From the IMG/VR virus record IMGVR_UViG_3300036805_000175, positions 1 to 64,000 of that record: DNA of 64,000 nt; one strand, 5' to 3'. This document shows positions 1 to 20,004 of the stretch, in pieces (position 1 is the first letter of the stretch; the number at the start of each line of letters is the position of its first letter). The translations under genes and the position numbers were made by a program. Origin of the DNA: a virus (lineage: Duplodnaviria > Caudoviricetes). The notes beneath the pieces are model-generated. The model was given only the letters and a program-made list of their open reading frames with translations. It was not told the DNA's origin and did no database searches.

Positions 1-552
1 CCCCTCCGGGGTGGTGCTCAGGACGGACATGTTGAAGAACTTCTCAATCTGGTCGTCCTTCAGCGCCTCCCCCGCCGGGATCACCGGGGACACAAGGAAG
101 ACGTGCGTTTCCTTCGTGGTCTCGCTGGGTGAAGAGTAGAAGCTGCCGAGCGGCCGCACGCACCCCACCCCAGCCGGCGCGTAGCCCGTCTCCTCGGCCA
201 GCTCCCGCAGCGCAGCCACCTCCAGGTCCTCCCCCGGTGCGACCTCGCCAGCAGGGAACTCGAGGGTGTACCGGCGCAGGTTGCGCCGGTACTGGTACAC
301 CATGACCAGATCGCCGCTCTCCACGACCGGGATCGCCAGCACGCTCGCCGGGGTGTCGACGTAGCACCAGTCCACTTCCTCGCCGGCTGGCATCCGCAGC
401 CGCTCGCGGACGAACCGCTTCGGGCTGTCCAGCAGGACCTCGGTCTTCACGGTCTCCGCATCGGCCAGGGACACCGCATGCCCCCGCCACGCCGGGTTCG
501 TGACCCAGGTGATGCCGTCCCGGTGCTCCACGTCCTTCTCGGTGATGATCAC
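1..552 (-). CDS. NUDIX hydrolase (ADP-ribose pyrophosphatase-like; pSAM2 Pif-like context), 3' end beyond window edge
   Basis: Not in the ORF track. Manual translation from GTG at 552 (TAGTG overlap with upstream stop) gives MIITEKDV...LEFPAGEVAPGEDLEVAALRELAEETGY, a complete Nudix box. Confidence 0.9.
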   Translation of the reverse strand, partial: MIITEKDVEHRDGITWVTNPAWRGHAVSLADAETVKTEVLLDSPKRFVRERLRMPAGEEVDWCYVDTPASVLAIPVVESGDLVMVYQYRRNLRRYTLEFPAGEVAPGEDLEVAALRELAEETGYAPAGVGCVRPLGSFYSSPSETTKETHVFLVSPVIPAGEALKDDQIEKFFNMSVLSTTPEG

Positions 553-1346
553 TATGCAGCCTCCCTGGCAAGGTCCCACGCCGCCTCGAAGTGCCGCTCG
601 TAGCGGCCGAACATCCGCGGCGCCGAGCGGGCGGTCAGCTCGAACGTTGGTGAGTTGGCCCCCGGCGAGAACCGCAGGTACGGCGTGACCAGCATCCGGT
701 CATCACCCCGCACCACGCTCACCGTCGGGTGCATGTCGTAGGTGCGGATCTGCAGTCCCTCACACGCGGCCCGCATCTGGCCGAACCGGGCCAGCCCGGC
801 GCGGATGCGGGCCGCGAGCGTCCCGGCCGGGTTGCCCTCCGCCTCGTCGATCCCGGTGATGCCGGCCCAGGCCGGGTCCAGCAGCAGCACCCGGATCGCG
901 CATCCCGCCGCGGTTGCCGCGGCCATGACCGTGGGTGTCTCGTCGTCCTCGGCGTACCCGAGCTCGGCCATCCCGTACAGCCACAGGTGAGTCCTGGCGC
1001 CGGCGACGGCATCATTCCAGTGCTGGCGCGGGATCAGCCCCCGGTCAGCCCACGGGGTCACGCCCTCGGGGGGGTCGCGGTCATCAGTCTGGGTGGCGAC
1101 CGCCGCGGCGAGCACCACATCCCCCGGCGGGGTGCCTGTGCCCTGCTCCCACCGGGATACCGTGCCCGGCCGCACGTCCCATCCGAGCATGCCGCTCAGG
1201 TAGCCGGCGAATCCGGCCGGGTCCAGCCTGAGCTTCTCCCTGGCCGCCTTGACCTGGGCGCTGGCGAGCCGGCGGAAGTCCGGCCGGTAGCCGGGGTGCC
1301 GGGCGAGGCTGATGACCTCGTGCTGGGTGCTAGCCGGTCTGCTCAT
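552..1346 (-). CDS. XRE-type HTH fused to DUF5919-like (PLD-like) C-terminal domain
   Basis: N-term VKAAREKLRL...PGTVSRWEQG HTH; C-term IRVLLLDP...RGDDRMLVTPYL...SPTFEL...YERHFEAAWD. Start 1346 chosen for a GGAGG RBS (ORF track starts at 1376). Confidence 0.7.
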   Translation of the reverse strand: MSRPASTQHEVISLARHPGYRPDFRRLASAQVKAAREKLRLDPAGFAGYLSGMLGWDVRPGTVSRWEQGTGTPPGDVVLAAAVATQTDDRDPPEGVTPWADRGLIPRQHWNDAVAGARTHLWLYGMAELGYAEDDETPTVMAAATAAGCAIRVLLLDPAWAGITGIDEAEGNPAGTLAARIRAGLARFGQMRAACEGLQIRTYDMHPTVSVVRGDDRMLVTPYLRFSPGANSPTFELTARSAPRMFGRYERHFEAAWDLAREAA

Positions 1347-1734
1347 CGGGCGCCTCCGTGCGCTGCGGCTGCTCATAGCCCAGCCGCGAGTACAGCTCCA
1401 TCATGCGGGCGTCCAGGTCGCCCAGGCCGTCCCGGACTTCCTCCCGCAGTTCCTCAAGCTCGCCGCGCAGACTGGCTGTCTCGCCGCCCGTGCCCGCTTT
1501 GCCAGCCGGGGCAGCGGCGGTGACGAACGTGCCCTTGCCCTGCAGCGTCTCCACGAGCCCCTCGTCGGCGAGGACATTGAGCGCCGCCCGGACGGTGGCG
1601 ATTCCCACGTGATGCCGAGCCGCCAGATCCCGCAGCGATGACCCCACCTGGTCGCCCGGACGGAGGTGGCCTGCGGTGATGCTGTCGCGTATCGCGCCGG
1701 CCACCGCACGGTAGAGAAGCCGCCGTTCTGCCAT
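1330..1734 (-). CDS. GntR-family repressor (KorSA/KorA-like)
   Basis: LYRAVAGAIRDSITAGHLRPGDQVGSSLRDLAARHHVGIATVRAALNVLADEGLVETLQGKGTFV, a classic GntR wHTH, plus a short coiled C-terminus. Confidence 0.9.
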   Translation of the reverse strand: MAERRLLYRAVAGAIRDSITAGHLRPGDQVGSSLRDLAARHHVGIATVRAALNVLADEGLVETLQGKGTFVTAAAPAGKAGTGGETASLRGELEELREEVRDGLGDLDARMMELYSRLGYEQPQRTEAPDEQTG

Positions 1735-1750
1735 ATGGCCAGCATAGGGG

Positions 1751-1831
1751 TGACGGCACAGTCAGCAAAGCCGCCACTTAGGTACTTAGACATGCGGCAG
1801 TGTTGACAGTGCCGTAAGTGTAGGTAAGACT
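1751..1831. promoter_or_regulatory. Divergent promoter/operator region
   Basis: TGACGGCACAGTCA (1751-1764) and TGACAGTGCCGTAA (1804-1817) are inverted relative to each other (12/14 match). TTGACA at 1803-1808 overlaps the second site. Confidence 0.65.
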
Positions 1832-1840
1832 AGGCACCAG

Positions 1841-2068
1841 ATGACCGATCTGGACACCCGGAGCGACCCCTTGAGTGCATCGGCTGTAGCCGCACCAGAG
1901 CAGGACCGCAGGATGCTCCTGCCCATCGCTGAGGTTTCCGAGCTGACCGGCGTATCGGTGCACACCCTCAAGCGGCGCGCGCCGACGAAGCGGATCGGCA
2001 CCCTGTGGCTCATCCCCCGCTCCTGGGTGGAGCACATCACGTCGTGGCCCAGCGAGGCCGTCTCATGA
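1841..2068 (+). CDS. Small HTH (excisionase/Cro-like) DNA-binding protein
   Basis: MLLPIAEVSELTGVSVHTLKRRAPTKRIGTLWLIPRSWVE resembles the HTH_17/Xis fold; divergent from GntR. Confidence 0.7.
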   Translation: MTDLDTRSDPLSASAVAAPEQDRRMLLPIAEVSELTGVSVHTLKRRAPTKRIGTLWLIPRSWVEHITSWPSEAVS

Positions 2069-2155
2069 TCCCCCAGGCACGCAAAACGACCCCGGGTGCT
2101 GGAACACCCGAGGCCGCAGAAGTGATCGATCCATTCCCTAGCAAGGAGCGATCTG

Positions 2156-2356
2156 ATGGCAACCGTACCAACGACCCGCCGGCAAGTCACGCACCCCTTC
2201 GCCCGGCTCGCCGCGGTCCTGCTGCGCCGCCGCTACGCCGAGGGCGACCCGGCACCGTGCACCGACCACCCGCCGCGCCGGCTGATCGCCGACCCGCGCG
2301 AGCCGGCTGCGGTGGCCTGCCCGCGGGACGGCCGGCACTTCCCGGCCGCAGCCTGA
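2156..2356 (+). CDS. Hypothetical protein
   Basis: ORF with AAGGAG RBS, coupled to the next gene. Confidence 0.45.
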   Translation: MATVPTTRRQVTHPFARLAAVLLRRRYAEGDPAPCTDHPPRRLIADPREPAAVACPRDGRHFPAAA

Positions 2357-2499
2357 TGCCGCTGTGCCTGCTGTGCGCGGGCGACAGGACGTGCCCGGAC
2401 TTCCCGGGCGTGTCCTGCCTGCGCTGCGCTGGCCTGGGCACCGACCCTGACCCGGCCGTTCCCGCTGTCGAGGGGTTTACCCAGGCAGGTGCGTCATGA
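2356..2499 (+). CDS. Small CxxC...CxxC (DnaJ-like Zn-ribbon) protein
   Basis: MPLCLLCAGDRTC...CLRCAGLGTDP; TGATG/ATGA coupling. Confidence 0.45.
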   Translation: MPLCLLCAGDRTCPDFPGVSCLRCAGLGTDPDPAVPAVEGFTQAGAS

Positions 2500-2774
2500 G
2501 CGGCGTCCTGCGGCTCGCGTCCACGCCGGACTGGCGGGATGGCGCGGCCTGCCTCGGGATGGACCAGGCCATCTTCTTCCCCGAGCTCGGCGCCAACCCG
2601 AACGCGGCCAAGCGCATCTGCGGGACCTGCACCGAGCGGGCGGCCTGCCTGGAGTTCGCCCTGTCCGTTGAGGCCCGCGGCCTGTCGCAAGGAAGGCCGC
2701 ACGGTGTCTACGGCGGCCTGTCCCCCACCGAGCGCCTGCCCCTGCTGCGCGAGTTGTGGGCGCGTGCCGCATGA
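2496..2774 (+). CDS. whiB: WhiB-family Fe-S transcription factor
   Basis: WRDGAAC...FFPE...AKRICGTC...ACLEFAL...GVYGGLSPTER. Confidence 0.92.
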   Translation: MSGVLRLASTPDWRDGAACLGMDQAIFFPELGANPNAAKRICGTCTERAACLEFALSVEARGLSQGRPHGVYGGLSPTERLPLLRELWARAA

Positions 2775-2976
2775 ACCCCACAGACGGCCGGCAGGCATCC
2801 GTCCTCACGCTGGCTGGCGCATCCGCGCCCGGCCCGCGCTGCGGGTGCCTGCTGGTCCAGAACGTCCCTGCGCACACCCGGGCCCTGGTGCAGGGGCAGC
2901 GGGCAGGCGCGATGAGTCACGGCCCCCGCGTGACCCGCGCCTGCCCGCCCAGGCCATCAGCGACGAGGAGCACCGC

Positions 2977-3183
2977 GTGATCGAAGCAGCCAGCAAGACC
3001 GCCCACCACCTGTCCATGACGCAGAGCGAGTGGGTGGCCAAGGTGTTCCTCGCCCTGGTGTTCCTCGCCGTGATCTGGGTGGTCTGGCGCGGCATCAAGC
3101 GCGCCCTGGGTGGCGGCAGTGCCACCTCCGGCCGCCGTTCCGCCTCCGGCCGCCGCGGCTCGTCCTACTCGTCCTGGCGCTGA
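2977..3183 (+). CDS. Small single-pass membrane protein (Spd-like)
   Basis: GAGGAG RBS, GTG start, hydrophobic VFLALVFLAVIWVVW followed by a basic tail. Confidence 0.55.
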   Translation: MIEAASKTAHHLSMTQSEWVAKVFLALVFLAVIWVVWRGIKRALGGGSATSGRRSASGRRGSSYSSWR

Positions 3184-3190
3184 GCCCCCC

Positions 3191-3721
3191 ATGGCCCACT
3201 ACCCGCCGATGAGCACCCGGCAGAAGGCCGCCCGCGCCGTTGCCGCCGGGGTGATGCTCGCTGCGTTCGCCCAGGCCGGCCACGCGCATGCGTCGGACAG
3301 CAGCGGGAGCGGCGGGAGCCACAAGACCAGCGCAGCGGCGCAGCGGGCCATCGCCTACGCGAAGGCGCAGCTCGGCAAGCCCTACGTCTGGGGTGGCACT
3401 GGGCCGGATGGGTTCGACTGCTCGGGGCTGACCGAGATGGCCTGGTCCGCGGCGGGTGTGAGTATCCCCCGCACGAGCGAGAAGCAGTGGGCCGGCCTGC
3501 GGCACGTACCGGCCAGCCAGCGCCGCCCAGGCGACCTGGTGTTCTTCGCTGGCGTCGATGGCACGTCCACGGCTCCTGGTCACGTCGGCCTCGTCATCGG
3601 CAAGCACAGCATGGTCGAGGCGTACGGCACCGGCTACCCGGTCCGCATCTCCCAGTACGGCACCGCGGCGTCCGCGCCCGGCGACGGCGACCCGGTCGGC
3701 TTCGCGGAGGTGCGCTCGTGA
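3191..3721 (+). CDS. Secreted NlpC/P60 cell-wall peptidase
   Basis: Signal peptide; AQLGKPYVWGGTGPDGFDCSGL, PGDLVFF, GHVGLVIG. Confidence 0.92.
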   Translation: MAHYPPMSTRQKAARAVAAGVMLAAFAQAGHAHASDSSGSGGSHKTSAAAQRAIAYAKAQLGKPYVWGGTGPDGFDCSGLTEMAWSAAGVSIPRTSEKQWAGLRHVPASQRRPGDLVFFAGVDGTSTAPGHVGLVIGKHSMVEAYGTGYPVRISQYGTAASAPGDGDPVGFAEVRS

Positions 3722-3936
3722 CCGCCGTCTGGCTCGCCGTGGCCGCCGCCGTGCTGTTCGTGCTGGCGTGGCCCAGGCACCGCCGTCCCACCGCCTATGC
3801 CCCGCCACCGGGCCCGCGGATGGCTGTCCGCTGCCCAGACTGCGGGCACGCCAATCCCGTACCTGGGCACAGGTTCCCCCGGGCCGGCACCTGCGGGCGC
3901 TGCGGCCACGGGTGGTCGACGGTGAGGACGCGCTGA
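3718..3936 (+). CDS. Small membrane protein with Zn-ribbon
   Basis: N-terminal TM segment; CPDCG...CGRCG. Confidence 0.5.
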   Translation: MTAVWLAVAAAVLFVLAWPRHRRPTAYAPPPGPRMAVRCPDCGHANPVPGHRFPRAGTCGRCGHGWSTVRTR

Positions 3937-4055
3937 TGGCCGCGGCAGGGTGGTGGGCGCAGCACGGGCCGCCCCTGGTAACCGGCGTGACGCTGTACGC
4001 CCTCATCGTCCTGATAGCGGTCGTGCTGCGTGTCAGGGGACGGTGGCATCGGTGA
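3936..4055 (+). CDS. Small membrane peptide
   Basis: TGATG coupling; LVTGVTLYALIVLIAVVL. Confidence 0.45.
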   Translation: MAAAGWWAQHGPPLVTGVTLYALIVLIAVVLRVRGRWHR

Positions 4056-4576
4056 GCCGCCCCCGCAGCCAGGCGATCAGCGGCCGGGAAGCCAAGATGG
4101 CCGCTGCCGTCGGCGTGCTCCTGGCCGTGCTCGCCAGCCACAGCGCGCACGCGGGCACCGGCCACCGCACACACGCCGCTGCGGGCATGGCGATCCCGGG
4201 CAGTCCTTCGGGCGGCTACACCCCGTCGAGCTGGGCGCACGCCATGCTGACCACCGCGGACCTGCCCCATACGCGCTGTAACCTCGCTGCGGTCACGTCC
4301 TGGGAGCGTGCCGAGGGTGGTAACTGGGCTAACACCGCCAAGGCGAACCCACTCAACACGACCATGCCCGAGCCCGGCTCCTGGGTGGTCAACAGCGACG
4401 GCGTGCGGGCCTACCCGTCATGGCGCACGGGCCTGCGGGCCACGGTCGCGACGCTCCGCAACGGCCGGTACTCCGGCGTCCTGGCCGCGCTGCACGCCGG
4501 GCACGACGCCCAGGCTGTCGCTGATGCCGTGGGGTCTTCGCCGTGGGGTACGGGCGGATTCGGGGCGAGCTGCTGA
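4052..4576 (+). CDS. Secreted putative lysozyme-like/transglycosylase cell-wall hydrolase
   Basis: Signal peptide; AVTSWERAEGG...NPLNTT...GVRAYPSWRTGLRATVATL...YSGVLAAL...SPWG, a motif set seen in actinobacterial phage muralytic domains. Confidence 0.55.
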   Translation: MSRPRSQAISGREAKMAAAVGVLLAVLASHSAHAGTGHRTHAAAGMAIPGSPSGGYTPSSWAHAMLTTADLPHTRCNLAAVTSWERAEGGNWANTAKANPLNTTMPEPGSWVVNSDGVRAYPSWRTGLRATVATLRNGRYSGVLAALHAGHDAQAVADAVGSSPWGTGGFGASC

Positions 4577-4869
4577 TGCGCTACCTCGCCGCCATCATCA
4601 TCGGTGCGCTGCTGAGCGCCCTCGTGGTGGGCCTGCTCGGCAGCCTCGGCCCGGTCACCGGCCTGCCGCACCTGCCCCACGGGCTGTGGGCGGACTACCT
4701 GGCGCTTGGCGGCGCGGCCGGGCTGGGTGTGATGGCCGTCTACGGCATCACGGCGTTCTTCATGAGCCTGTGCCTGCTGGTGGCCCAGTGGTGTGGCCGT
4801 CGCGTTCCCACCGCCGGGCCCGAGCCCGCACCGGAACCGCAGAAGGAGGAGTCGTGGGTGCCATTCTGA
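4576..4869 (+). CDS. Two-TM membrane protein (Spd-like)
   Basis: Two hydrophobic segments; coupled to neighbours. Confidence 0.55.
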   Translation: MRYLAAIIIGALLSALVVGLLGSLGPVTGLPHLPHGLWADYLALGGAAGLGVMAVYGITAFFMSLCLLVAQWCGRRVPTAGPEPAPEPQKEESWVPF

Positions 4870-5732
4870 CCGCCGCCGGGTGGGTGTTCCTGCCCGCACT
4901 GGCCGCGCTGGCCGCGCTGCTCGGCCACCAGGCGCTCGCCAAGGACCGGGATCACACCGAACTGGCCGCGACGGCGGCACTGATCACCACGTGCGGCGGC
5001 GTGTGCATCTGCGGTGTCCTCGGGCTGCTGCCGGGCATTCTCGCGATCATCCTCGCCGCTGGCGCGTTCATCGCCGCTGCGGTGCTGTCGGTGGACATGG
5101 TGCGCAAGGTCAGCGACCCGCACCCGGAGGCCAAGGTGCTCGGCGGCCTGGCGCTGGTGAGCTGGCTCGTGGTGCGGGACGCGTTCACGCGCGGACGGAA
5201 GGCGGCCGGGAAGCGCCGGCGGCCACCCGACGAGCTGGCACCGCGCCGCAAGCCGAAGACAGCGGATTCGCCAGCGCCGCCGAAGCGGCCCGATGTGCGT
5301 GCGGTCCCAGACCCGCGCCCGGCACCACCGCCGCGCAGTGCCCCGGCGCTGACCTCCGGGCCGCTGCCACGGGCTGTCGCGGAGGGCCGCGTCTCGCAGG
5401 CTTGGGCGCAGGTCATCTCCGGTATCGCGGACTTCGAGGCGGGCAGCGACGCGGAGTTCCTGGCCCACTGGCAGGAAACGGCGACCGGCATGGTCCACGT
5501 GGCCGACGCCATTATCGACCAGGCCGAGTACCACGCCGAGGAGGTCGGCCTGGCCCCGGTCATCGTCACCGCGATGTTCGACGGCTCCGAACTGGCCAGC
5601 GAGACCTCGTCCGGGTTTGCCGCAGTTCGTGAGCGGCTGCTTGAGGCATACCAGGGTGCCCGCGGCGACGCCGCAGCCGGCCATGACCTGCCGAAGGATG
5701 GACGCTGGGTCACCGGCGAGGATGCCGGATGA
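4854..5732 (+). CDS. Multi-pass membrane protein with acidic C-terminal helical domain (transfer accessory)
   Basis: GTG start after AGGAGG; about 4 N-terminal TM segments; ATGA overlap with traB. Confidence 0.6.
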   Translation: MGAILTAAGWVFLPALAALAALLGHQALAKDRDHTELAATAALITTCGGVCICGVLGLLPGILAIILAAGAFIAAAVLSVDMVRKVSDPHPEAKVLGGLALVSWLVVRDAFTRGRKAAGKRRRPPDELAPRRKPKTADSPAPPKRPDVRAVPDPRPAPPPRSAPALTSGPLPRAVAEGRVSQAWAQVISGIADFEAGSDAEFLAHWQETATGMVHVADAIIDQAEYHAEEVGLAPVIVTAMFDGSELASETSSGFAAVRERLLEAYQGARGDAAAGHDLPKDGRWVTGEDAG

Positions 5733-7894
5733 CGCCGCAGCCGCAGGATGAACTGGACGCCTGGCAGGCCGCAGGGCCGCAGTCCCGGCCGGAGTCCTCG
5801 AGCGCCTGGGCCTGGATGAAGCGCGCGCCCGTCGAAAGGCTCACCCTGCCCGTGGCCGGGGCTACCTGGCTCGCGGCGGACATCCTGCACGCCGTCGCCG
5901 TCAGCCCGCTCATTCCCGTCGCCGCGGCACTGCTGGCCGCACGCATTGGCTACAAGCGGGTGGGCCGCCACGTGAAGCGCATGGCCGCGCATCAGGGCCA
6001 CGAACCGGAGCGCAACTACCCCGCCGATACGGCGGCTGCCATCGGTGCTGCGGGCGGCTGGCTGGCCGCGGCGACCGCCTGGGGACCTGGCGGCATCCTT
6101 GGCTACGTGTGGCTGGGCGTCTCGTTCAGCGGGTACCTGTGGCTGCGGTTCTGGCATCCCGGCGTGCAGCACGCCCGGACGTGGCGGGCCCGGCGCCGGG
6201 CATGGACGGGTGGCGAGGCGCACTCGCTCGGCCTGCACGGCTCCCACATCACCCACTACAAGGAGACCAGGCTGGGCGAGTGGTTCCGGCTCGACGTCAC
6301 CGGAACGGGCCGGATGTCATCCTCACTGGCCGGGCGGCACACGGCCGAGCGGATCGCCCAGCGGCGGCGCCTGCCCGTCTCGCGGGTGCTCGTCACCCAG
6401 GGTGCCATCGCCGGAGACCTGGAGGTGTCCATCCGCGACCGCGACCCCTGGCACGAGCAGCGCCCGCACCCGCTGCTCGACCCGGACCCGCAGATCCCGC
6501 TCACCGTGGGCGGTTCCATCCTCGACCCCGCCGTGTTCGGTGCCGACCCGGAAGAAGGCCACCCGCTGGACCTGGCGCTGTTCGACCGGGACCTCGGCGC
6601 CCGGCGCATCCTGGTCATGGGCACGCCCGGCTACGCGGGCAAAACCGTGCTAATGAACTGTTTCCGCGAGCGGGTGACCGCTGCGGCCGACGCAGTGATG
6701 GTCAGCATCAACCTGTCCAAGGGCATCGAGGACCGCGCCTGGGCACCCGCCTGCCACCTGACCGCCATCGGCGCCCAGCAGGCCGGCCGCGCACAGCAGA
6801 TCATGGACCTGCTGGTGGCCGTCATCGACATCCGGCCCACCCTCCGCAGTCATGCGGTGTTCCGCCCCGGCACCGATGGCCCGGCGATCGTGCTGTTTCT
6901 GGACGAGGCCGACGTGGCCACCCCGCACATCAAGCAGCAGCTGCGGGACGTGCTGTCGAAGGGCCGCAGCGAGGGCATCACGGTCATCCTCGCCGCTCAG
7001 CGCGCCTATGGCGGGTGGATCGGCGGCCGGGACACCCGCTCCCTCGTGGACGCCGTCTGTGCCGGCACGGTCACCCGCACCCGGGAGACTGACCTCGCGG
7101 CCGGCTCGCTCGCTCACCTGCTGCCGGACATGACCGCCTACGGCGAGGGTTCCCCCGGCGTGTGGGGCATCGCCGAGATTACCGGCCGCACCCAGCGTGG
7201 CCGCTCGTTCCCGCTCACGGACCTGGACGACTCGCGCCGGTTCGCCCACGACCGGGCCCGCTCCCAGCCGGTGCTCGAGCCCGCTCTCGTGGCCGCGCTC
7301 CGGGAGCGCCTGGGTGACCTCTACGACGGCCTGCTCGGCTCGGACGCGTTTGCCGCATGGGCCGCAAGTTACCCGCCAGTAACCAGTGATGGTGAGCCCG
7401 CAGAAGTGCCCGCGCCCGGGACCACGCTGGCCCCTCCCCCGGACGGCATGCACACTGAGGAGCGCGAGACCGCCCGTGCTGCCACCGACGACCTGGAGGC
7501 GTGGCCCGTGCATGACGACCAGTTCCCCGCCACACCCGCGGACCGCCGCGCCATGCTCCGCAGCAGGATCGAGAACGCGAAGGCGGCGAACGCGCGCGCC
7601 GACGCCATCCAGGCCCAGATCGAGGCCGACGACCCGGCACAGGTGCGCGCGGCGTTCGACCGCGCCTGGGAGAAGCAGAAGGCCAGCACTCCGTTCCCTG
7701 AAGGAACCCGCAAGCGGCTGCTGGAACTGCTCGCTGACGGCACCACCAGCAGGCAGGCCGCCGCCGACCTCGGCGTGCCAGCCTCCCGGGCCCTCACCTG
7801 GCTGCACCGGCTCAGGGACGACCGGCTCGCCCGGCTCGAGGGCAAAGGCCGCGGCTCACGCTGGGTCGCCGCCGAGGATGGTGACGCAGCGTAG
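5729..7894 (+). CDS. TraB/TraSA-like FtsK/SpoIIIE-family conjugative DNA translocase
   Basis: N-terminal TM segments; P-loop ILVMGTPGYAGKT; Walker B IVLFLDEAD; LSKGRSEGITVILAAQR; C-terminal winged helix (TTSRQAAADLG...WLHRLRDDRLARLEGKGRGSRW). Confidence 0.82.
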   Translation: MTPQPQDELDAWQAAGPQSRPESSSAWAWMKRAPVERLTLPVAGATWLAADILHAVAVSPLIPVAAALLAARIGYKRVGRHVKRMAAHQGHEPERNYPADTAAAIGAAGGWLAAATAWGPGGILGYVWLGVSFSGYLWLRFWHPGVQHARTWRARRRAWTGGEAHSLGLHGSHITHYKETRLGEWFRLDVTGTGRMSSSLAGRHTAERIAQRRRLPVSRVLVTQGAIAGDLEVSIRDRDPWHEQRPHPLLDPDPQIPLTVGGSILDPAVFGADPEEGHPLDLALFDRDLGARRILVMGTPGYAGKTVLMNCFRERVTAAADAVMVSINLSKGIEDRAWAPACHLTAIGAQQAGRAQQIMDLLVAVIDIRPTLRSHAVFRPGTDGPAIVLFLDEADVATPHIKQQLRDVLSKGRSEGITVILAAQRAYGGWIGGRDTRSLVDAVCAGTVTRTRETDLAAGSLAHLLPDMTAYGEGSPGVWGIAEITGRTQRGRSFPLTDLDDSRRFAHDRARSQPVLEPALVAALRERLGDLYDGLLGSDAFAAWAASYPPVTSDGEPAEVPAPGTTLAPPPDGMHTEERETARAATDDLEAWPVHDDQFPATPADRRAMLRSRIENAKAANARADAIQAQIEADDPAQVRAAFDRAWEKQKASTPFPEGTRKRLLELLADGTTSRQAAADLGVPASRALTWLHRLRDDRLARLEGKGRGSRWVAAEDGDAA

Positions 7895-7899
7895 ACCCT

Positions 7900-8004
7900 A
7901 ATTGCGTGGGGGTGAATTGAATTGCTGAATTGCGTGACCTGCTACGACGGGGGCGCAACGCGCGCCCGTACGCGCGAGGGCGAAGCGATTCACGCCACGC
8001 AATT
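7900..8004. repeat. AATTG(CGTG) direct/inverted repeats immediately after traB
   Basis: AATTGCGTG at 7900-7908 and 7928-7936, AATTG at 7915 and 7920, inverted CACGCAATT at 7996-8004. Confidence 0.6.
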
Positions 8005-8093
8005 ACAGGTTACCCACAGTCACCGGGGGAGGGGAGCGCGTGTCGTGGACGGGAAACCCGGCAGCAGCGAGACGGGAAGTGGAGGATGAGGAG

Positions 8094-8864
8094 ATGAGCA
8101 GGTGCCAGCGGGAACCGCGGACCCCCGAGGCCGCGAACAAGTCCATCCGCAACGCCACCGCCGCTGTCGTGGTCGCCGTGGCCGCGTTCGCCGCAGTCAT
8201 CTCCTACCAGCACATCTACTTCGTCGCCCGCCATCACGGGCAGGATGGCAGCGCATCCGGGCTGCTGCCGCTGAGCGTGGACGGCCTGATTCTCGCCGCC
8301 TCCCTGGTGATGCTGCATGAGTCACGCGCCGGCCGGGACACCCCGCACCTGACGCGCTTCGCACTCTGGCTCGGCATCGTGGTCACGGTCGCGGCCAACG
8401 TCGGCTATGGCGTCCCCTTCGGCATCGTGGGTGCGCTCGTGTCCGCATGGCCGGCGCTGTCCTTCGTGCTCGCCGTGGAGATGCTGATGGGTCTCGTCCG
8501 GCGCTCCCGCAGTGCACCCGTGGCGCAGCCTGAGACCGCGCCGGAAGTACACACCGCACCCGGGTCCGGAACGGTCCTCCCGGCCGTACCTGAGCCCGTA
8601 CCCGCACCGGAGGCGCAGGCGCACCCGGAACGCACCCGTACCCGTACCCGCAAGCGCGCGCCGGCCGTACCCGTGACCGCCCGCGACCCGCTCCTCGAGT
8701 TCGCGGCTGAAGTGGCTTCGGGTACGGCACCGTCGGTGCGCCAGATCCGTACCCGGATGCATGTCGGCCAGGACCGCGCATACGAGATCCTGGGTGACCT
8801 GGAGAAGACCATCACCGAGGGAATGGCCATGGCATCGAACGGGAACGGGATGCAGCATGGATGA
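8094..8864 (+). CDS. DUF2637 (SpdA-like) membrane protein with C-terminal HTH-like tail
   Basis: AFAAVISYQHIY...LLPLSVDGLILAAS...ATVAANV...SAWPALSFVLAVEML; C-term PSVRQIRTRMHVGQDRAYEI. Confidence 0.85.
   Translation: MSRCQREPRTPEAANKSIRNATAAVVVAVAAFAAVISYQHIYFVARHHGQDGSASGLLPLSVDGLILAASLVMLHESRAGRDTPHLTRFALWLGIVVTVAANVGYGVPFGIVGALVSAWPALSFVLAVEMLMGLVRRSRSAPVAQPETAPEVHTAPGSGTVLPAVPEPVPAPEAQAHPERTRTRTRKRAPAVPVTARDPLLEFAAEVASGTAPSVRQIRTRMHVGQDRAYEILGDLEKTITEGMAMASNGNGMQHG
8556..8756 (+). repeat. Cluster of G(T/C)ACCCG direct repeats inside the DUF2637 gene
   Basis: GCACCCGG 8556 and 8621, GCACCCGT 8632, GTACCCG 8598, 8638, 8644, 8667 and 8749, GTACCTG 8586. Confidence 0.6.
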
Positions 8865-9102
8865 GCGCGGAACAGTCCGGTCCTTTGGTTGCCGGTACTG
8901 CGATGGTGCCCGCTCCCCGTGCACATGCAGCGAGGATTGCGGAGCACGCCCGGCGGATCCAGGCAGCGGCGGTCACTACTGCTCGAGGGGTGATGGCTTC
9001 GGGGAGTGGCGTGATGCCCAACTCGCGGCCAGCCGGTCCATGTCTAGTTGCTCCGAGCATCCAGACGGCAGTTGCTTCCGCCAGGACGGGATGCACTCGT
9101 GA
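8857..9102 (+). CDS. Cys-rich hypothetical protein
   Basis: CRYC...CTCSEDC; coupled to the upstream gene. Confidence 0.4.
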   Translation: MDERGTVRSFGCRYCDGARSPCTCSEDCGARPADPGSGGHYCSRGDGFGEWRDAQLAASRSMSSCSEHPDGSCFRQDGMHS

Positions 9103-9350
9103 GCGCGCCCGTCCCGGAGAACTTGCCCAGTTACCTGGACATGACCGAACCGGAGGCCAGGATCGAGCAGACGGGGAGATGGACCTACTCGGTCGGCATC
9201 ACCCATGGTGCCATGTACATCGGCCCGGGCCTGCATGGCGGCGGCTGGCTGGTGTTCGGCCGCGCCCGTGCGGAGCGGAAGGCCGCGCGCGAGCTTGCAC
9301 GGTACAAGCGTGACAGGGCACGCCACAAGGCCGCCTGGACGGTGCGCTGA
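9099..9350 (+). CDS. Hypothetical phage protein
   Basis: GTGA coupling; coding-like codon bias. Confidence 0.5.
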   Translation: MSAPVPENLPSYLDMTEPEARIEQTGRWTYSVGITHGAMYIGPGLHGGGWLVFGRARAERKAARELARYKRDRARHKAAWTVR

Positions 9351-9742
9351 TGCCCGAACGGGAACGGGGCGCACTCGTGACCGGCTGCACTGCGAGCCGG
9401 TTCGGTGATCACGACTACTCCGAGCCGCCGCACAACACCCCGGACGATCCCCGCGACGCTGAGGACACAACGCCGTGCCAGGCGCAACTCAGCCGCGCGC
9501 CATTCCCGCCGTGTGAGCATGAGCGCCGCTACGAACTGGTCGTCTACCAGCCGGGGTCGCATGACTGGATACGGATGTTCGCGTGCACGCCCTGCACCGC
9601 GACACTGCGCCAGTCCAAAGCCCGGATGCTGCTCGGGCCGCCGGGGAACCGGGAAGGCGTCGCCCGCATCTGCACCGCCCGGCAGGATGGTGACATGGCA
9701 GCCGGCTTCAAACGGGAATGGTGTACGGCATGGACGAGATGA
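9350..9742 (+). CDS. Hypothetical Cys/His-containing protein
   Basis: TGATG coupling. Confidence 0.45.
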   Translation: MPERERGALVTGCTASRFGDHDYSEPPHNTPDDPRDAEDTTPCQAQLSRAPFPPCEHERRYELVVYQPGSHDWIRMFACTPCTATLRQSKARMLLGPPGNREGVARICTARQDGDMAAGFKREWCTAWTR

Positions 9743-10131
9743 CCGCGTTCTGTGAGGCCCGGCTGGCTGAGGACGAGTGCATCGCGCAGGGTCTTGCCTC
9801 AGGAGCCATAGGCACCGACTTCTACAGCAGGAGCGGCGCGGACACAGACCTCTACTGGGGTTATATCGACCCGGCCCGCGTGCTCCGTGAGGTCGCGGCC
9901 AAGCGGGCGATCCTGGCCGAGCATGCGCCCGTGCCAGGCGTCACCGATGCGGGTATAGACGGACGTGTCTGCCGCGTCTGCTGGACGACCGGCCGTGAGC
10001 CGGGTGGCCGGTACCTGGAGGGCGATCCGTACCCGTGCCGGACCGTCCGGCACCTGCTCACCGAATGGGACGATCATCCCGGTTACCAGCCATCCTGGGC
10101 ACCCGACGGGAACGGGGCGGCGCATGGGTGA
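9730..10131 (+). CDS. DUF6221-like actinophage protein
   Basis: MTAFCEARLAEDE...DPARVLREVAAKRAIL...PCRTVRHL...DHPGYQPSWAP. Confidence 0.75.
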   Translation: MDEMTAFCEARLAEDECIAQGLASGAIGTDFYSRSGADTDLYWGYIDPARVLREVAAKRAILAEHAPVPGVTDAGIDGRVCRVCWTTGREPGGRYLEGDPYPCRTVRHLLTEWDDHPGYQPSWAPDGNGAAHG

Positions 10132-10492
10132 GGATGTGACTGCGACTGAACCGAACGTGACCCTGTTCAGCGATGGCCTGCTGTCCAAGTGGGGCTTCGG
10201 CGACGGCGATACGCCTGACGCTTGGTACGACTACTGCGACGAGCACAGCATTAACTGGAGCGACCTCAGTTACCCGCTCGTGGCCCTGGTGCGCGCATTC
10301 CTGCTGCCAGCGCTCGACCAGGATGTCGAGGTCGTGGAGATCGGCACGCACCACAACCCGATCCGGGCACGCACCGTCAACGGCGTGAATGTTGAGGACC
10401 GCTGGTACGAGATGGACGCTGGCATAGAACTGACGCCGGAATCCGTCACGGTGCCCATGGCCGAGGTTGTGCGCCTGGCACGCGCAGGCTGA
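10124..10492 (+). CDS. Hypothetical phage protein
   Basis: LFSDGLLSKWGFGDGD...THHNPIRA; strong codon bias. Confidence 0.6.
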   Translation: MGEDVTATEPNVTLFSDGLLSKWGFGDGDTPDAWYDYCDEHSINWSDLSYPLVALVRAFLLPALDQDVEVVEIGTHHNPIRARTVNGVNVEDRWYEMDAGIELTPESVTVPMAEVVRLARAG

Positions 10493-10751
10493 CGCCGGAA
10501 CTAGGCTTTGTTCCACCCCTCCGCCCCGCTCACTGTCTGGCCTGCCTGCGTGGTTCACCTCGTCCTGCCGCTTGCCATCCTCGCTGCTGATCTTCTGTTC
10601 CTGGTCCTGGTCCGCCATGGCCAGCGGGACCGCGACGAGGACGAGGACGGGGAGAGACCGGGTTGGCATCACCGTGACGGATGGTACAAAATGAGGCCCA
10701 TCCCTGTCTCAACCTGGGGTTGAGGGTTGCCGCCAAGGTCAGGAGTGACGA

Positions 10752-11612
10752 TTGCCGGTCCGCGAGCGGTACGAAGCCCAGGACACCGGCAGCGAGCAGC
10801 GGGAATGCGCACGCCGTGAATGGTGCCGCAAGTACACGCTCAAGACTGCGGACGGCCAGACCAGCCGCCGTGGGGCGCTGGGCTACCGCGCCTTCTGTGA
10901 ACTGGATGAGGCCGGTATTGGCGCCGCTCTCGGTGACCTGCCCGGCTACTACGTCTATCTCGGTGCCGAACTCGGGATGCCTGCCACCGATGGCCAGCAC
11001 CTGCATGTCCCGGCCGGCCCGCGGCTGCCCATCAGGCCCGACATCGACGCCCTGATGCGGCTGATCACCGAGACGCTGTGCTCATGGGAGGAACGCGTCC
11101 GCGCGGCGGCGAGGCTCACCACCCTGGACACGCAGCTGTCCCGCCACCGCCGCAGTGGCAAGGCTGTCCTGCAGGCCTCGCGCGTCCTGTCCGCGCACCT
11201 GGGCGTGCTGCTCGCGCTCGCCGCTGAGCCGATGACCCGGCTCAGTGACGGGATGGTGGCCACTGAAGACCTCAGCGGCGCGGACGCCGGCCTGGAGATC
11301 CTGCACCTGAAATACCGGGCCCGTTCGGCCCTGGGTGAGACGCGGCCGAAGCCAGAGGAACTGCTCGGCGTCCTGTGCCGCCGCAAGTCCTGCGACCTGC
11401 GCGCCCTCTACCGCGCCGACCCGCCGCAGCACGACGGCGCGGCCGCTTACTGGTCGGTGTGTGCGGCCTGCGGTGACCGGATGACCGAAGCCCAGTACCG
11501 CACCTGGACCCGCCGCTGCGCCGCCTACGAGCAGGCCAGCACCCGCCACGTGCCGGTCCTGGAGAACCTGCCCAGCGTGGCGGATGTTGGCGCTGTCACT
11601 GTTGACGTGTAA
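10752..11612 (+). CDS. Zn-ribbon-containing putative late-transcription regulator
   Basis: Helical core SWEERVR plus C-terminal CxxxxC...CxxCG; position upstream of the packaging genes. Confidence 0.45.
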   Translation: MPVRERYEAQDTGSEQRECARREWCRKYTLKTADGQTSRRGALGYRAFCELDEAGIGAALGDLPGYYVYLGAELGMPATDGQHLHVPAGPRLPIRPDIDALMRLITETLCSWEERVRAAARLTTLDTQLSRHRRSGKAVLQASRVLSAHLGVLLALAAEPMTRLSDGMVATEDLSGADAGLEILHLKYRARSALGETRPKPEELLGVLCRRKSCDLRALYRADPPQHDGAAAYWSVCAACGDRMTEAQYRTWTRRCAAYEQASTRHVPVLENLPSVADVGAVTVDV

Positions 11613-11689
11613 AGTCCGTGCCCAGGAGCACTATGCCCCGGCCAGGATCATCCGGACCGGGGCATTCGCGCATCTCAGGGAGGGCACGC

Positions 11690-11941
11690 GTGCGGATAAC
11701 CCGCGGCGACGGCCTGATTACCCGCGAGCAGGCAGCCGAGCTCTGCGGCGTCACGCCAGGCACCATCTCACAGTGGATCGGCCGCGGCTACGGCCCGAAG
11801 GACAGCCACCGCAGGCTTCCGGTGGCGAAACGGGAGAACGGCCGCATCCTGCTGGATCCGGTGGAGGTCGCGAAGGCCGACCACGCCACGGCCCGGCGGG
11901 CGCGTCGCATCGTCATCCGCGGGACCGCCTGCGCAGCCTGA
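11690..11941 (+). CDS. MerR/Xis-like HTH DNA-binding protein
   Basis: LITREQAAELCGVTPGTISQWIGRG...LLDPVEV. Confidence 0.7.
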   Translation: MRITRGDGLITREQAAELCGVTPGTISQWIGRGYGPKDSHRRLPVAKRENGRILLDPVEVAKADHATARRARRIVIRGTACAA

Positions 11942-12042
11942 CGCGGCAAGCGGAGGCATATGCCCCGGTGCCCGCTTACCCGCCGCTGAGCGATTGTAAG
12001 CCGTCGCAGGTCAGTGCGGCCCCGCGTAAACGGAGGCGAGTC

Positions 12043-12216
12043 GTGGCCGTCCTCGCTGACCGTGCCCGCAAGGCCCGCAAGGCGTCCTGGCTCGCCTGCG
12101 GCTGCTACGTCCGCCCCGGCCACCTGATCGCCCGCCTGCAGGGCCGCTGGGTGTGCATCGAGCACCTGCTGGCGGCCCGCCGTGAGCCTCACGCCGAACG
12201 GAGTGACCATGCCTGA
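12043..12216 (+). CDS. Small Zn-finger-like protein
   Basis: GGAGG RBS; LACGCYVRPGHLIARLQGRWVCIEH. Confidence 0.45.
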   Translation: MAVLADRARKARKASWLACGCYVRPGHLIARLQGRWVCIEHLLAARREPHAERSDHA

Positions 12217-12547
12217 CCCCATCAAGCCGCCTACGTCTAAGCCGGGCGGCGACGACAAGGCAGCCCACAGTGGCGGCCACGCCAAGCCCGCTGCGGCCAA
12301 GAGTGCACCGGCGGGCAAGCCGGATGAGCCCGCGCAGCCGGCCAAGCCCGGTGACCGCGACGACGGGCATCAGGACGACGAGGCGAAGCCTGCCCGGGAG
12401 AACGACCACCCCGCGAAGCCGGACGCGCCGCAGCCCGCACGCGACGACCGCCCGGACGGCTGGGCCGGTGACTGGCCGCCGTCGTCGCACGGCTCCAGCG
12501 GCAGCGCGAGCCCGCGCCAGCCCGGCCAGCCCACCGAGCATCCCTGA
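12209..12547 (+). CDS. Low-complexity Pro/Asp/Lys-rich protein
   Basis: Disordered composition; coupled at both ends. Confidence 0.45.
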   Translation: MPDPIKPPTSKPGGDDKAAHSGGHAKPAAAKSAPAGKPDEPAQPAKPGDRDDGHQDDEAKPARENDHPAKPDAPQPARDDRPDGWAGDWPPSSHGSSGSASPRQPGQPTEHP

Positions 12548-12649
12548 TGCGCTCCTGGCTGCGCTCGTGCCGCCGCCGCCGGCATGGACGCCGGCAGGTG
12601 CGCTCCCAGATCGAGTGGTGCCTGGACTACATCAGCCGCACCTACGGCG

Positions 12650-12835
12650 ATGCCTGACGGCGCACCGGCTGACCCGTTCGGCGGCCAGGGACTGGCCGAA
12701 GCCGCTGCGCAGATGGCCGAGATGTATACCGCGTTCTGCGCGGCCGGGATACCACCGCAGTCGGTGGCGGTGCTGCTCGGCACGTGGATGGCGACCGCCG
12801 GGAACGGCAACCAGCCCGGCGGTGACGGCACGTAG
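12650..12835 (+). CDS. Hypothetical protein
   Basis: MPDGAPADPF...QMAEMYTAFCAAGIP. Confidence 0.45.
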   Translation: MPDGAPADPFGGQGLAEAAAQMAEMYTAFCAAGIPPQSVAVLLGTWMATAGNGNQPGGDGT

Positions 12836-12844
12836 GCTCGGTAC

Positions 12845-13189
12845 ATGCCTGAGCTGGCCGCCATGGACGGGATGCCACCACCCGCAGACCTGCCGCGCGG
12901 CGATTGCGTCGTGACCACCCTGTACGGCGAGGACGGCTCAGAGACCGGCATCCGCATCGACCAGGCCGACCCGCGCGTGCTGATCAGTGAGGCACTCCTG
13001 GCCACTGTCGCCGATGACCCGCCGCCGTACGCGCGGCTGGACAGGCAGTGCACGCTGCCGGCCATGGGGCGCTGGGGCATAACCATCGGCGACCTGCTGA
13101 AGATCCAGGGCGTCAACCGGACGGTGATCTACCGCCTCGCCGAGTACGTCCCGCGCGTCCACGCCTACATCGGCGAATGGCCAGACTAG
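12845..13189 (+). CDS. Hypothetical phage protein
   Basis: ORF in operon with codon bias. Confidence 0.55.
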   Translation: MPELAAMDGMPPPADLPRGDCVVTTLYGEDGSETGIRIDQADPRVLISEALLATVADDPPPYARLDRQCTLPAMGRWGITIGDLLKIQGVNRTVIYRLAEYVPRVHAYIGEWPD

Positions 13190-13201
13190 GGACGGTGCCG
13201 A

Positions 13202-13519
13202 GTGACCACCCGCCCGCCACCGCTGTACGGCCGGGCGGGCAAGTGCGGCCTGAACATGGGTGCCACGGGCGAACCCGGCGAGCACGCCGCCAGTGCCTGC
13301 GACAAGCCCGTCCAGGTGATCGTCGAGTTCGGCTGTGTCCACGAGCACGTGTTCCGTGAGGGCAAGTGCGCCAGCCACGGCTACCTGCTCGCCTCCGGTG
13401 ACGCGCCGATGGTCTGCTCGGCCTGCTGGCAGGGCTGGGGCGGCGTCACACCGCACACCTGCCGGCTGCTCGGCCGCGTCGTCGCTGACCTCGAAGCCAC
13501 CCGGCAGTCCCGTGCCTGA
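13202..13519 (+). CDS. Cys/His-rich hypothetical protein
   Basis: GCVHEH...CASH...CSACW. Confidence 0.5.
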   Translation: MTTRPPPLYGRAGKCGLNMGATGEPGEHAASACDKPVQVIVEFGCVHEHVFREGKCASHGYLLASGDAPMVCSACWQGWGGVTPHTCRLLGRVVADLEATRQSRA

Positions 13520-13892: not shown

Positions 13893-13976
13893 CGGCACGG
13901 CACACCTCACGCTCAGTGCCACCGGCGCAGCGGTTACAGCCAGGCATCCCCAGCAGGGTAACGCAGTGCTATCACC

Positions 13977-14289: not shown

Positions 14290-14454
14290 GCCCTGTATCC
14301 GGCCCTTCCGCACCCTCCCGCTAGCTACGCTGTGTAACGCCCGGGGATTGGTCACCATCCGTGACCCCACGCCGTGGGTAACGGTGGGTGACATCCGGCC
14401 AGCCGGAGATAGTCACCGGGTGTCACTGCGGGCCGGAATCTCCTGACTGGGGGC

Positions 14455-16655: not shown

Positions 16656-16672
16656 GACGGGGAGGACCCGGC

Positions 16673-19948: not shown

Positions 19949-20004
19949 CCCCGGTGCCAGACGGCACGAACCTCACCGTTCACAACGCCCAGGAAGGCAC
20001 CGCA

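Follow-up and report, generated by a model that had tools for sequence, protein, structure and literature searches.

Introduction

Can a temperate phage carry, beside the genes for its virion, an apparatus that passes its genome from cell to cell as naked double-stranded DNA? The question is raised by the first rightward operon of the window analysed here, 64,000 nt corresponding to bases 1-64000 of a 76.6-kb virus record (~76.5 kb as a circle). The initial annotation described this region as the transfer module of an actinomycete integrative conjugative element (AICE) joined to a complete siphovirus. The reading favoured here, to which a joint probability of about 0.55 is given, is that the operon encodes a TraB/Spd-like dsDNA translocation apparatus and belongs to the complete genome of a temperate siphovirus that carries integrases and infects an uncultured high-GC actinomycete.

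The element and its gene order

The ends of the record share a 126-bp overlap, so the record is probably a closed circle; the 3' end of the NUDIX gene crosses the circular junction, and the joined contig ends give a complete in-frame ORF. IMG/VR labels the record linear, with a CheckV completeness of 80%. Megablast of window positions 1-20000 against phages and plasmids gave nothing useful. A profile search of genome contigs, in which three MAG loci were found, indicated uncultured Actinomycetota as hosts, which may or may not be mycelial, and this counts against the transfer reading.

The features of the element are collected in Table 1. From the module the rightward genes continue into those for terminase, portal, capsid, tape measure and lysis, and the earlier description was borne out: the module belongs integrally to a genome that is complete and of siphovirus type, and it shares the orientation of the virion genes. 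A siphovirus has a long tail that does not contract, and the genes expected for such a phage (TerL, portal, prohead protease, major head, major tail and tape measure) are present. The tape measure protein (1174 aa) carries a transglycosylase domain, and the match of the lysin to GH25 lies under the Pfam cutoff (8e-5, 23.5 vs 27 bits).

Table 1. Features of the module, the virion block and the integrases, with positions in the window.
Feature	Position	Strand	Basis and remarks
NUDIX hydrolase, Pif-like position	1-579	-	PF00293 3.1e-13
HTH_31 + DUF5919 regulator	552-1376	-	Pfam; candidate second repressor
GntR-family regulator	1330-1734	-	PF00392 1.5e-15; KorA/TraR-like position
Small HTH protein, Cro/Xis-like, first rightward gene	1841-2068	+	Weak MerR/HTH_17 matches, sub-cutoff
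WhiB-like regulator	2496-2774	+	PF02467 2e-15
Secreted NlpC/P60 peptidoglycan endopeptidase	3110-3721	+	PF00877 1.4e-23; signal-peptide-like N-terminus; likely start ~3191
Secreted lysozyme-like (GH73-like) protein, 160 aa	4094-4576	+	Fold; invariant Glu
Small membrane protein, ~3 TM	4543-4869	+	Hydropathy; Spd-like by position alone
Membrane protein, 292 aa, Pro-rich linker, conserved C-terminal domain	4854-5732	+	
TraB-like DNA translocase (predicted), 721 aa	5729-7894	+	N-terminal membrane helices, beta domain, FtsK/TcpA-fold ATPase, C-terminal winged helix
Intergenic AT-richer repeat site	7895-8039		AATTGCGTG x2 direct and x1 inverted; candidate clt or operator
DUF2637 protein, four TM, C-terminal HTH	8040-8864	+	PF10935 1.3e-16; phrog_733; hydropathy
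CCGTACCCG array	8554-8755		6 exact and 3 one-mismatch copies, both strands, inside DUF2637 linker; candidate clt
DNA-binding protein, phrog_1568	10752-11612	+	phrog_1568 3.3e-12; travels with module
Non-coding gap, early genes to terS (~0.5 kb)	13900-14454		GC down to 0.585; terminator-like hairpin 14187-14212
Virion and lysis block	14455-47376	+	terS-like, TerL, portal, S78 protease, major head, EndoVII, major tail, tape measure, minor tails, GH25-like lysin
Serine recombinase, large	49234-50730	+	Pfam Resolvase/Recombinase/Zn_ribbon_recom
Tyrosine integrase	51401-52585	+	Pfam Phage_integrase

It had been stated that neither an integrase nor a terminator separates the module from the virion genes. 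The first half of this statement holds, no integrase or att-like repeat being found between them; the second half does not, as a terminator-like hairpin lies in the low-GC gap before terS. The HNH gene that had been placed ahead of the terminase was withdrawn: the ORF 14168-14446 appears non-coding, and an HNH-like motif occurs instead in the frame 13335-13892. Composition is the sole basis of the gene calls between 8.9 and 14 kb. Homologues of the phrog_1568 protein were found 4-6 kb downstream of the pump gene in six related loci. When the small ORFs of the related loci were compared with those of the window, the sole match was the HTH gene 11618-11941.

RepSA was not found in the record, in agreement with the initial annotation, and neither was Prim-Pol; the control for the RepSA search also matched nowhere. 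The record gave no match to ParB_N or AAA_31 (ParA-like). The proposal of replication by an initiator and DnaC is half wrong, because the supposed initiator, a 403-aa protein at 60473-61684, is a DNA methyltransferase.

Regulators, wall hydrolases and membrane proteins

The NUDIX, GntR and small HTH proteins, the membrane proteins, the two secreted hydrolases, the 721-aa ATPase and the DUF2637 protein were all recovered where they had been placed, by Pfam, fold or hydropathy. The module occupies the divergent regulatory region of the phage. The GntR gene is transcribed divergently from the pump operon, the same layout as that of korA/tra in pIJ101, and a divergent GntR gene occurs in four related loci as well; homologues of the HTH_31-DUF5919 regulator adjoin the module in two. 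The WhiB gene, which the first reading of the sequence had overlooked, is kept at the module head in six related loci.

The phage has a lysin of its own and the transglycosylase domain of the tape measure protein, and the two secreted hydrolases come in addition to these. The NlpC/P60 endopeptidase has homologues in two related loci. The 160-aa protein has 137 homologues, none of them with a Pfam family, and Foldseek gave nothing below E 0.3. The top 16 VIA matches of its AF2 model (pLDDT 82) were all wall hydrolases (best Z 7.4), and the weak Foldseek and ESM leads concur with this fold. TraB systems are not known to include secreted hydrolases, which counts against the transfer reading.

The small membrane protein had no sequence homologues in the related loci. 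The family of the 292-aa membrane protein lies directly upstream of the pump gene in ten loci, a 300-aa protein of locus L004 showing 37% identity (3e-34). The stop codon of the 292-aa gene overlaps the ATG of the pump gene (ATGA), and through this overlap the two genes are predicted to be coupled. The DUF2637 protein, which occupies an equal position in two related loci, gave no tblastn match in cultured phages and no similarity to SpdB of pIJ101 (E 1.0). None of the small proteins of the module resembles a known Spd protein, and this also has to be counted against transfer.

The predicted DNA pump

The predicted architecture of the pump matches that of TraB, which consists of a membrane N-terminus, an ATPase and a wHTH (PMC4447253). 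In the AF2 model (pLDDT 83) helices were located at residues 26-166 and the wHTH at 658-714, and Foldseek matched the model to TcpA (4e-12) and the FtsK motor (4e-11). The family profile matched FtsK in the PDB (1e-5) as well as ArsR/MarR-type wHTH domains at profile positions 590-675, while a single-sequence phmmer search of the PDB gave noise. Alignment by hhalign with Tra/KilA of pIJ101 (96.6%, E 6.8e-10) covered 300 columns, including the pre-ATPase domain, whereas no more than 200 columns were aligned with the E. coli FtsK motor. Walker A (G304-K305), Walker B (D392-E393) and the QR motif (Q424-R425) are invariant across 28 members of the pump family. As judged from modelled fold and profile homology, the pump is thus an FtsK/SpoIIIE-type ATPase.

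The initial annotation had proposed a comparison with the FtsK_SpoIIIE profile as a check. PF01580 did not match the protein at E<=0.01, nor even when the record was searched in six frames at E<=10; pIJ101 Tra, unlike the pump, is matched at 9e-10, and this weighs against the transfer reading. On sequence comparison the pump is a divergent family relative to this profile. The family is almost confined to viral contigs, and BLAST against 72,556 plasmids gave no significant homologue (best E 1e-3). A tblastn search of cultured phages gave one weak match, with 21.5% identity along 37% of the protein (E 5e-4), phrog_12531 was matched at E 0.006, and NCBIfam gave no match for the pump or its partners.

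Repeat arrays near the pump gene

The published clt sites are short repeats bound by the wHTH of TraB (PMC4447253, PMC3583192). Repeat units of 8-9 bp are found in arrays just downstream of the pump gene. The comparison of 17 loci showed 8-mer arrays to be 7.4-fold denser at -0.4 to +2 kb of the pump stop codon than elsewhere (P=2e-9; 12/17 loci). The six exact copies of CCGTACCCG lie within 160 bp, vs three elsewhere in the window (four in the whole 76.5-kb record). They occur in two reading phases, with one copy inverted, which argues that selection acts on the DNA. The motif AATTGCGTG was also found in the equivalent gap of L004, and the pumps of L004 and the window have the recognition helix RALTWL in common. 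A covariation of recognition helix and repeat was considered and proved not to be clean, the window and L010 having a common CCGTAC core yet different helices. The arrays may be loading sites of the pump; they could alternatively be iterons, a centromere or operators.

Alternative explanations

The linkage of the two parts might be accidental if an independent AICE or small conjugative element had recently inserted into a prophage, each part moving separately, or if an AICE contig and a phage contig had been joined in assembly. The GntR, NUDIX, FtsK-like pump and membrane proteins do form the classical AICE set (PMC2440964, PMC3218068), and the record holds two integrases; these, however, lie ~41 kb from the module, adjoining the lysis genes, and no direct repeat of at least 17 bp was found flanking the module, which makes a nested AICE or a chimera unlikely. 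The absence of a Prim-Pol or RepSA match, the position of the module at the divergent regulatory region of the phage and a GC content without a break across the boundary also speak against insertion. The module recurs in ten or more further viral genomes, where it lies upstream of different packaging and head modules; in L003, L004 and G002-G007 it co-occurs with Phage_portal, SPP1_portal, Terminase_6N or HK97-capsid genes. It keeps the same place in phages whose pumps are down to 37-58% identical. (A tblastx comparison of the module with the related loci without a low-complexity filter gave matches everywhere in high-GC DNA and was discarded.) Insertion is therefore judged very improbable. 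A chimera would be in keeping with the metagenomic origin of the record, its linear label and its estimated completeness; since the same linkage is seen in independent assemblies from other samples (L003, L004/L005, G002-G007), the end overlap closes the contig and restores the NUDIX ORF, and composition shows no break, this is the most improbable of the explanations.

A weightier alternative, although an unlikely one, is that the module forms an early-gene membrane complex of the phage that acts without intercellular transfer, in superinfection exclusion or defence against incoming DNA, in steering septation or development of the host jointly with WhiB, or in segregation of an episomal or replicating genome to compartments or spores. 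Many actinophages carry FtsK-like and WhiB-like genes, virulent Streptomyces phages among them (PMC13587820; bioRxiv 10.1101/2024.02.16.580700), and in the latter conjugation makes little sense; this, too, weighs against transfer. The almost solely viral distribution of the family without a significant plasmid homologue, the resemblance of the pump fold to HerA defence ATPases and a weak PADLOC match to mad8 (3.5e-6) point in the same direction, but the last spans no more than 46 residues of the Walker B stretch. A sequence-specific pump with nearby repeats would fit segregation equally well, as in FtsK/KOPS. On the other hand, the complete kil/kor-like set of GntR and NUDIX genes, membrane partners and arrays next to the pump has a closer match in transfer regions than in the exclusion and defence systems described so far; exclusion or segregation would not readily account for two secreted wall hydrolases, and the homology to pIJ101 Tra reaches beyond the ATPase core.

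Proposed mechanism and implications

From the gene content, folds, invariant motifs, enriched arrays and recurrence in many phage genomes we infer DNA binding, pumping and intercellular or intramycelial transfer. The GntR repressor would hold the operon silent, as KorA/TraR do for tra/kilA, and may be assisted in this by the HTH_31-DUF5919 protein and the NUDIX enzyme. On expression, the NlpC/P60 endopeptidase and the GH73-like glycosidase would locally open the wall, and the small membrane proteins, the 292-aa protein and the DUF2637 protein would form the envelope part of the apparatus. Through the winged helix at its C-terminus, the membrane-anchored FtsK-fold ATPase would load onto the phage genome at AATTGCGTG and/or CCGTACCCG and pump unprocessed dsDNA across a septum or into a neighbouring cell.

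It is tentatively suggested that a widespread group of uncultured temperate actinophages might possess two routes of spread, as virions and in a conjugation-like manner, a deep-branching TraB-like pump hidden from the FtsK_SpoIIIE profile, wall hydrolases and cognate repeats moving the genome as naked dsDNA between cells or compartments. If the pump works as in plasmids, such phages would blur the boundary that separates viruses from conjugative elements; a prophage could spread to further cells with no need for receptors, particles or lysis, and models of host range, immunity and gene flow in soil actinomycetes would change. Since the family escapes the Pfam profile used for AICEs and Streptomyces-type conjugation, surveys based on that profile miss these modules. 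Homologues of SpdB2 in actinophages have been proposed to spread phage DNA (PMC4447253). The single experimental precedent is pZL12, a ParAB plasmid-phage, for which the summary of Zhong 2010 given in PMC3583192 states that transfer requires a tra gene and two neighbouring genes; an integrating lineage with a different pump, wall hydrolases and recurrent arrays would broaden this picture.

Comparison with known systems

The Tra(KilA)/KorA-clt-Spd regions of the Streptomyces plasmids pIJ101, pSVH1 and pWTY27 likewise contain a membrane-anchored FtsK-like ATPase with a C-terminal wHTH (PMC4447253, PMC3583192), a divergent GntR regulator, translationally coupled small membrane proteins and, at the pump gene or behind it, arrays of short direct repeats. 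Unlike these regions, the phage module has a pump that PF01580 does not detect and no similarity to SpdA, SpdB or KilB, it adds two secreted wall hydrolases, WhiB and DUF2637, and it resides in a 76.5-kb phage without a plasmid Rep rather than in a plasmid of 9-30 kb.

The AICEs pSAM2, SLP1 and pMEA300 resemble the element in having a Kor-type GntR gene next to a Pif-like NUDIX gene, a likeness at the domain level, as well as one FtsK-like translocase, membrane proteins of Spd-like type and an integrase of their own (PMC2440964, PMC3218068). The likeness to AICEs claimed at the outset thus stands for the gene set and the kil/kor-like layout, which mirror Streptomyces plasmid and AICE transfer regions, but the element falls outside the AICE definition: AICEs are compact (9-24 kb), virion-free and bounded by att sites adjoining the integrase, whereas here a full virion module is present in 76.5 kb, RepSA and Prim-Pol were not found, the integrases are far from the module and the pump goes undetected by the FtsK_SpoIIIE profile that defines AICEs.

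Cultured actinophages, too, encode FtsK-type ATPases, such as gp112 of Streptomyces phage Elmer and phrog_12531, often with WhiB in the genome (PMC13587820); the similarity of the pump to these proteins is low (values given above), and, unlike for the phage described here, a kil/kor-like module with repeat arrays has not been described for them in the literature consulted. Like pZL12/phiZL12, pSLE1 and PhiNon1, the element combines virion genes and a tra-type transfer gene, here of predicted function, on one actinomycete element, and pSLE1 too carries two integrases (PMC4487206). In contrast to pZL12 and pSLE1, which have ParA/ParB and plasmid replication, the record has no ParB_N or ParA-like gene, and its pump has no BLAST-level match in the plasmid collection. 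PhiNon1, whose 49 kb examined gave no homologue of the pump, has a portal and a capsid of ~50% identity to those of the element and a DUF2637 protein.

Gene content of the module

Since raw ORF lists are useless at a G+C content such as this (about 70% along the DNA and unchanged where the module ends), genes were called by third-position G+C and then checked against families and relatives. The early genes are collected in the table together with the other features discussed here, and include a WhiB gene that the initial annotation had overlooked.

Features of the early module, of the surrounding phage genome and of compared loci (window coordinates unless a locus is named)
Feature	Position	Direction	Basis or remark
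NUDIX protein	1-579	leftward	family match
HTH_31-DUF5919 protein	552-1376	leftward	family match
GntR protein	1330-1734	leftward	family match
Small HTH protein	1841-2068	rightward	weak MerR/HTH_17 matches
WhiB protein	2496-2774	rightward	family match
NlpC/P60 endopeptidase with signal peptide	3110-3721	rightward	family match
Secreted 160-aa protein	4094-4576	rightward	homologues, predicted structure
Membrane protein, about three TM segments	4543-4869	rightward	
292-aa membrane protein	4854-5732	rightward	stop overlaps ATG of next gene
721-aa ATPase (pump)	5729-7894	rightward	
Post-pump gap	7895-8039		AATTGCGTG, two direct copies and one inverted
DUF2637 protein, four TM segments and C-terminal HTH	8040-8864	rightward	
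Terminator-like hairpin	14187-14212		
Endonuclease VII and zinc-ribbon gene	21625-22359		GC 0.64
Tape measure protein	32595-36119		1174 aa
Large serine recombinase and tyrosine integrase	49234-52585		adjoin each other
DNA methyltransferase	60473-61684	minus strand	phrog_67, 4.7e-31
DnaC/IstB-like ATPase	61681-62502		
Repeats CCGTACGG(G/A)	L010:12752-13520		at least 16 copies
Repeats TGGACCTGTT	L004:4298-4394		five copies, about 21-bp spacing
pIJ101 Tra/KilA	L028:3897-5843		

Two secreted wall hydrolases had been proposed for this region. The NlpC/P60 endopeptidase is confirmed by its family, and the case for the 160-aa protein rests on fold leads and on a Glu residue that is invariant across its family, whose 137 homologues are all labelled "hypothetical" and lack a Pfam family. 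Its predicted model (pLDDT 82) gave nothing under E 0.3 in Foldseek; lysozyme-like wall hydrolases nevertheless made up all of the ten best Foldseek rows, all of the sixteen best VIA rows (AtlA GH73 matching with Z 7.4 and rmsd 3.0 over 113 residues) and likewise the ESM-atlas leads. This agreement, together with the invariant Glu, lends moderate support to a pair of putative hydrolases in the module. In the tape measure protein, residues 1014-1089 form a C-terminal transglycosylase-like domain (phrog_12661), and the phage thus owns entry and lysis wall enzymes beyond these two.

The pump and its relatives

Pfam FtsK_SpoIIIE did not match the pump, not even when all six frames of the entire record were searched at E<=10, and no NCBIfam model did so either. 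A word-based search returned 29 relatives; with a full profile, 219 cluster representatives scored below 1e-30. Compared with the PDB, the family profile matched the FtsK motor (1e-5) over a stretch spanning Walker B and the "AGQR" motif, and its C-terminus matched winged helices of the ArsR/MarR type. In the AF2 model (pLDDT 83), N-terminal helices (residues 26-166) and a beta domain precede the RecA-like ATPase, and a winged helix lies at the C-terminus; its Foldseek neighbours are the pCW3 coupling protein TcpA (4e-12), FtsK (4e-11) and EccC. Across 28 family members no substitution is seen in Walker A (G304-K305), Walker B (D392-E393) or Q424-R425.

In hhalign the family aligned with Tra/KilA of the Streptomyces plasmid pIJ101 (96.6%, E 6.8e-10, 300 columns), the alignment extending some 140 residues beyond the ATPase core on its N-terminal side, and with the E. 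coli FtsK motor (95.1%, 200 columns); a 687-aa hypothetical protein of a 28-kb linear Streptomyces plasmid was a remote relative (98.6%). PF01580 is matched by pIJ101 Tra itself at 9e-10. These comparisons with named references argue for the pump being a more divergent branch with a predicted TraB architecture. The pIJ101 protein is listed in RefSeq merely as a "helix-turn-helix domain-containing protein", and the plasmid is typed as non-mobilizable by MOB-suite, an example of how Streptomyces-type transfer passes unflagged in standard pipelines.

Repeat arrays downstream of the pump gene

The AATTGCGTG repeats of the post-pump gap occur also in the equivalent gap of the related locus L004, and the pumps of both loci have the recognition helix RALTWL in common. 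About 700 bp further on, at 8554-8755, where the DUF2637 gene encodes a Pro-rich linker, lies an array of CCGTACCCG, with six exact and three one-mismatch copies in 200 bp; exact copies outside the array number three in the 64-kb window, with a fourth in the record's final 12.7 kb. The copies are read in two phases (PVP/AVP and TRTR/IRTR) and one is inverted, so that it is the DNA motif which is conserved and not a peptide repeat. Allowing one mismatch, the window holds 78 copies of CCGTACCCG, where shuffled sequence predicts 33 +/- 5.8, an enrichment exceeding the local array.

When an array was defined as an 8-mer present at least four times in 300 bp, arrays in 17 non-redundant loci were 7.4 times as dense from 0.4 kb before to 2 kb after the pump stop codon as elsewhere (21 in 40 kb against 20 in 282 kb, P=2e-9). 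At least one lay near the stop codon in 12 of the 17 loci, the motifs varying by lineage. The published clt sites are arrays of 7-8-bp repeats situated at or just after tra and read by the TraB winged helix (PMC4447253, PMC3583192); by analogy, the arrays of the window resemble this arrangement and are candidate sites for the pump. Possibly they are instead iterons, a centromere or operators. The L010 repeats occupy the 3' end of that locus's DUF2637 gene and the sequence following it, and have a core similar to CCGTACCCG, yet the recognition helices of the two pumps differ. Those of L004, upstream of the GntR genes, are iteron- or operator-like.

The phage genome around the module

The record is a single virus sequence of 76,653 bp, of which the window is bases 1-64000; IMG/VR classes it as "linear" and CheckV puts it at 80% complete. 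Bases 1-126 are repeated exactly at 76519-76644, the terminal 9 bases deviate at 3 positions of the NUDIX gene, all synonymous, and joining the ends regains the complete NUDIX reading frame. The record looks like a circle; a k=127 assembly graph yields such ends when the molecule is closed or terminally redundant and has a short variant tip.

The remainder is, from its gene content, a full siphovirus-type genome, with TerL (38% identity to that of Rhodococcus phage REQ1), portal, S78 protease, major head, major tail, tape measure and minor tail proteins; a GH25 match stayed under the Pfam gathering cutoff (8e-5, 23.5 vs 27 bits). The two integrase genes follow the lysis genes, and no attP was identified. 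The Endonuclease VII and zinc-ribbon gene, directly after the major head gene, lies in a low-GC patch, as for a homing endonuclease. A scan of the 64-kb window found no tRNA genes. Of the replication pair named in the initial annotation, the DnaC/IstB-like ATPase is borne out and alone fits such a role, the "initiator" being a DNA methyltransferase instead.

Between the module and terS there are small co-directional early genes, including DUF6221, a phrog_1568 DNA-binding protein and an HTH protein, and then a 0.5-kb low-GC gap that contains the terminator-like hairpin. This gap looks like a normal early/late boundary and not an att junction.

Recurrence and interpretation

Conserved synteny of the pump module was found in other viral contigs, in which pump relatives of 33-58% identity stand in the same order: divergent GntR, WhiB, hydrolase, a membrane protein of about 290 aa and the pump, after which DUF2637 and a phrog_1568 gene often come. 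The packaging and head genes beside them differ: Phage_portal in locus L003 and viral genomes G005-G007, Terminase_6N with SPP1_portal in loci L004/L005, HK97 capsid in genomes G002 and G004, and SPP1 portal in G003. Among the contigs are proviruses, such as the IMG entries G002 and G003, as well as the IMG/VR record L010, which is 70.7 kb long, has direct terminal repeats and is rated 100% complete. This recurrence is the decisive evidence for a genuine link between module and phage. It makes it improbable that an AICE is nested in a prophage, for which flanking direct repeats of at least 17 bp were also not found, and it makes an assembly chimera improbable as well.

The preferred reading, with a probability of roughly 0.55, is a TraB/Spd-like apparatus moving the phage genome as dsDNA between compartments or cells. 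GntR would control it in a kil/kor manner, the two hydrolases would make the wall passable, and the genome would cross septa or reach neighbouring cells. The main rival, a tentative but serious one, is a sequence-specific membrane pump with another early role, such as exclusion, control of host development with WhiB, or genome segregation; in its favour, virulent Streptomyces phages carry FtsK-like and WhiB genes (PMC13587820; bioRxiv 10.1101/2024.02.16.580700). A role in defence finds little support, PADLOC yielding just a 46-residue mad8 match.

An experimental precedent for phage-borne transfer genes is pZL12 (Zhong 2010, cited by PMC3583192 and PMC4487206), and Thoma et al. proposed that actinophage SpdB2 homologues spread phage DNA (PMC4447253). 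The element falls outside the definition of an AICE, because no Prim-Pol or RepSA was found and the record, at 76.5 kb with virion genes, has its integrases 41 kb from the module. A strict plasmid-phage of the pZL12 type is ruled out, there being no ParB_N or ParA-like gene in the record and no BLAST-level match of the pump among 72,556 plasmids. The plasmid-phage-like PhiNon1 of Nonomuraea gerenzanensis shares portal and major head proteins (about 50% identity) and a DUF2637 protein (39%) with the window, and no pump homologue was seen in the 49 kb examined there. What is new is the combination: a divergent pump family escapes PF01580, its conserved partners include two wall hydrolases, maintenance is integrative and not of the ParAB kind, the whole recurs in the genomes of many uncultured phages, and the pump gene is linked statistically to arrays downstream of it. 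The hosts seem to be uncultured Actinomycetota of soil or bog; a search of 185,579 species genomes yielded only three loci, each in a MAG, and one homologue carries the label Streptosporangiaceae.
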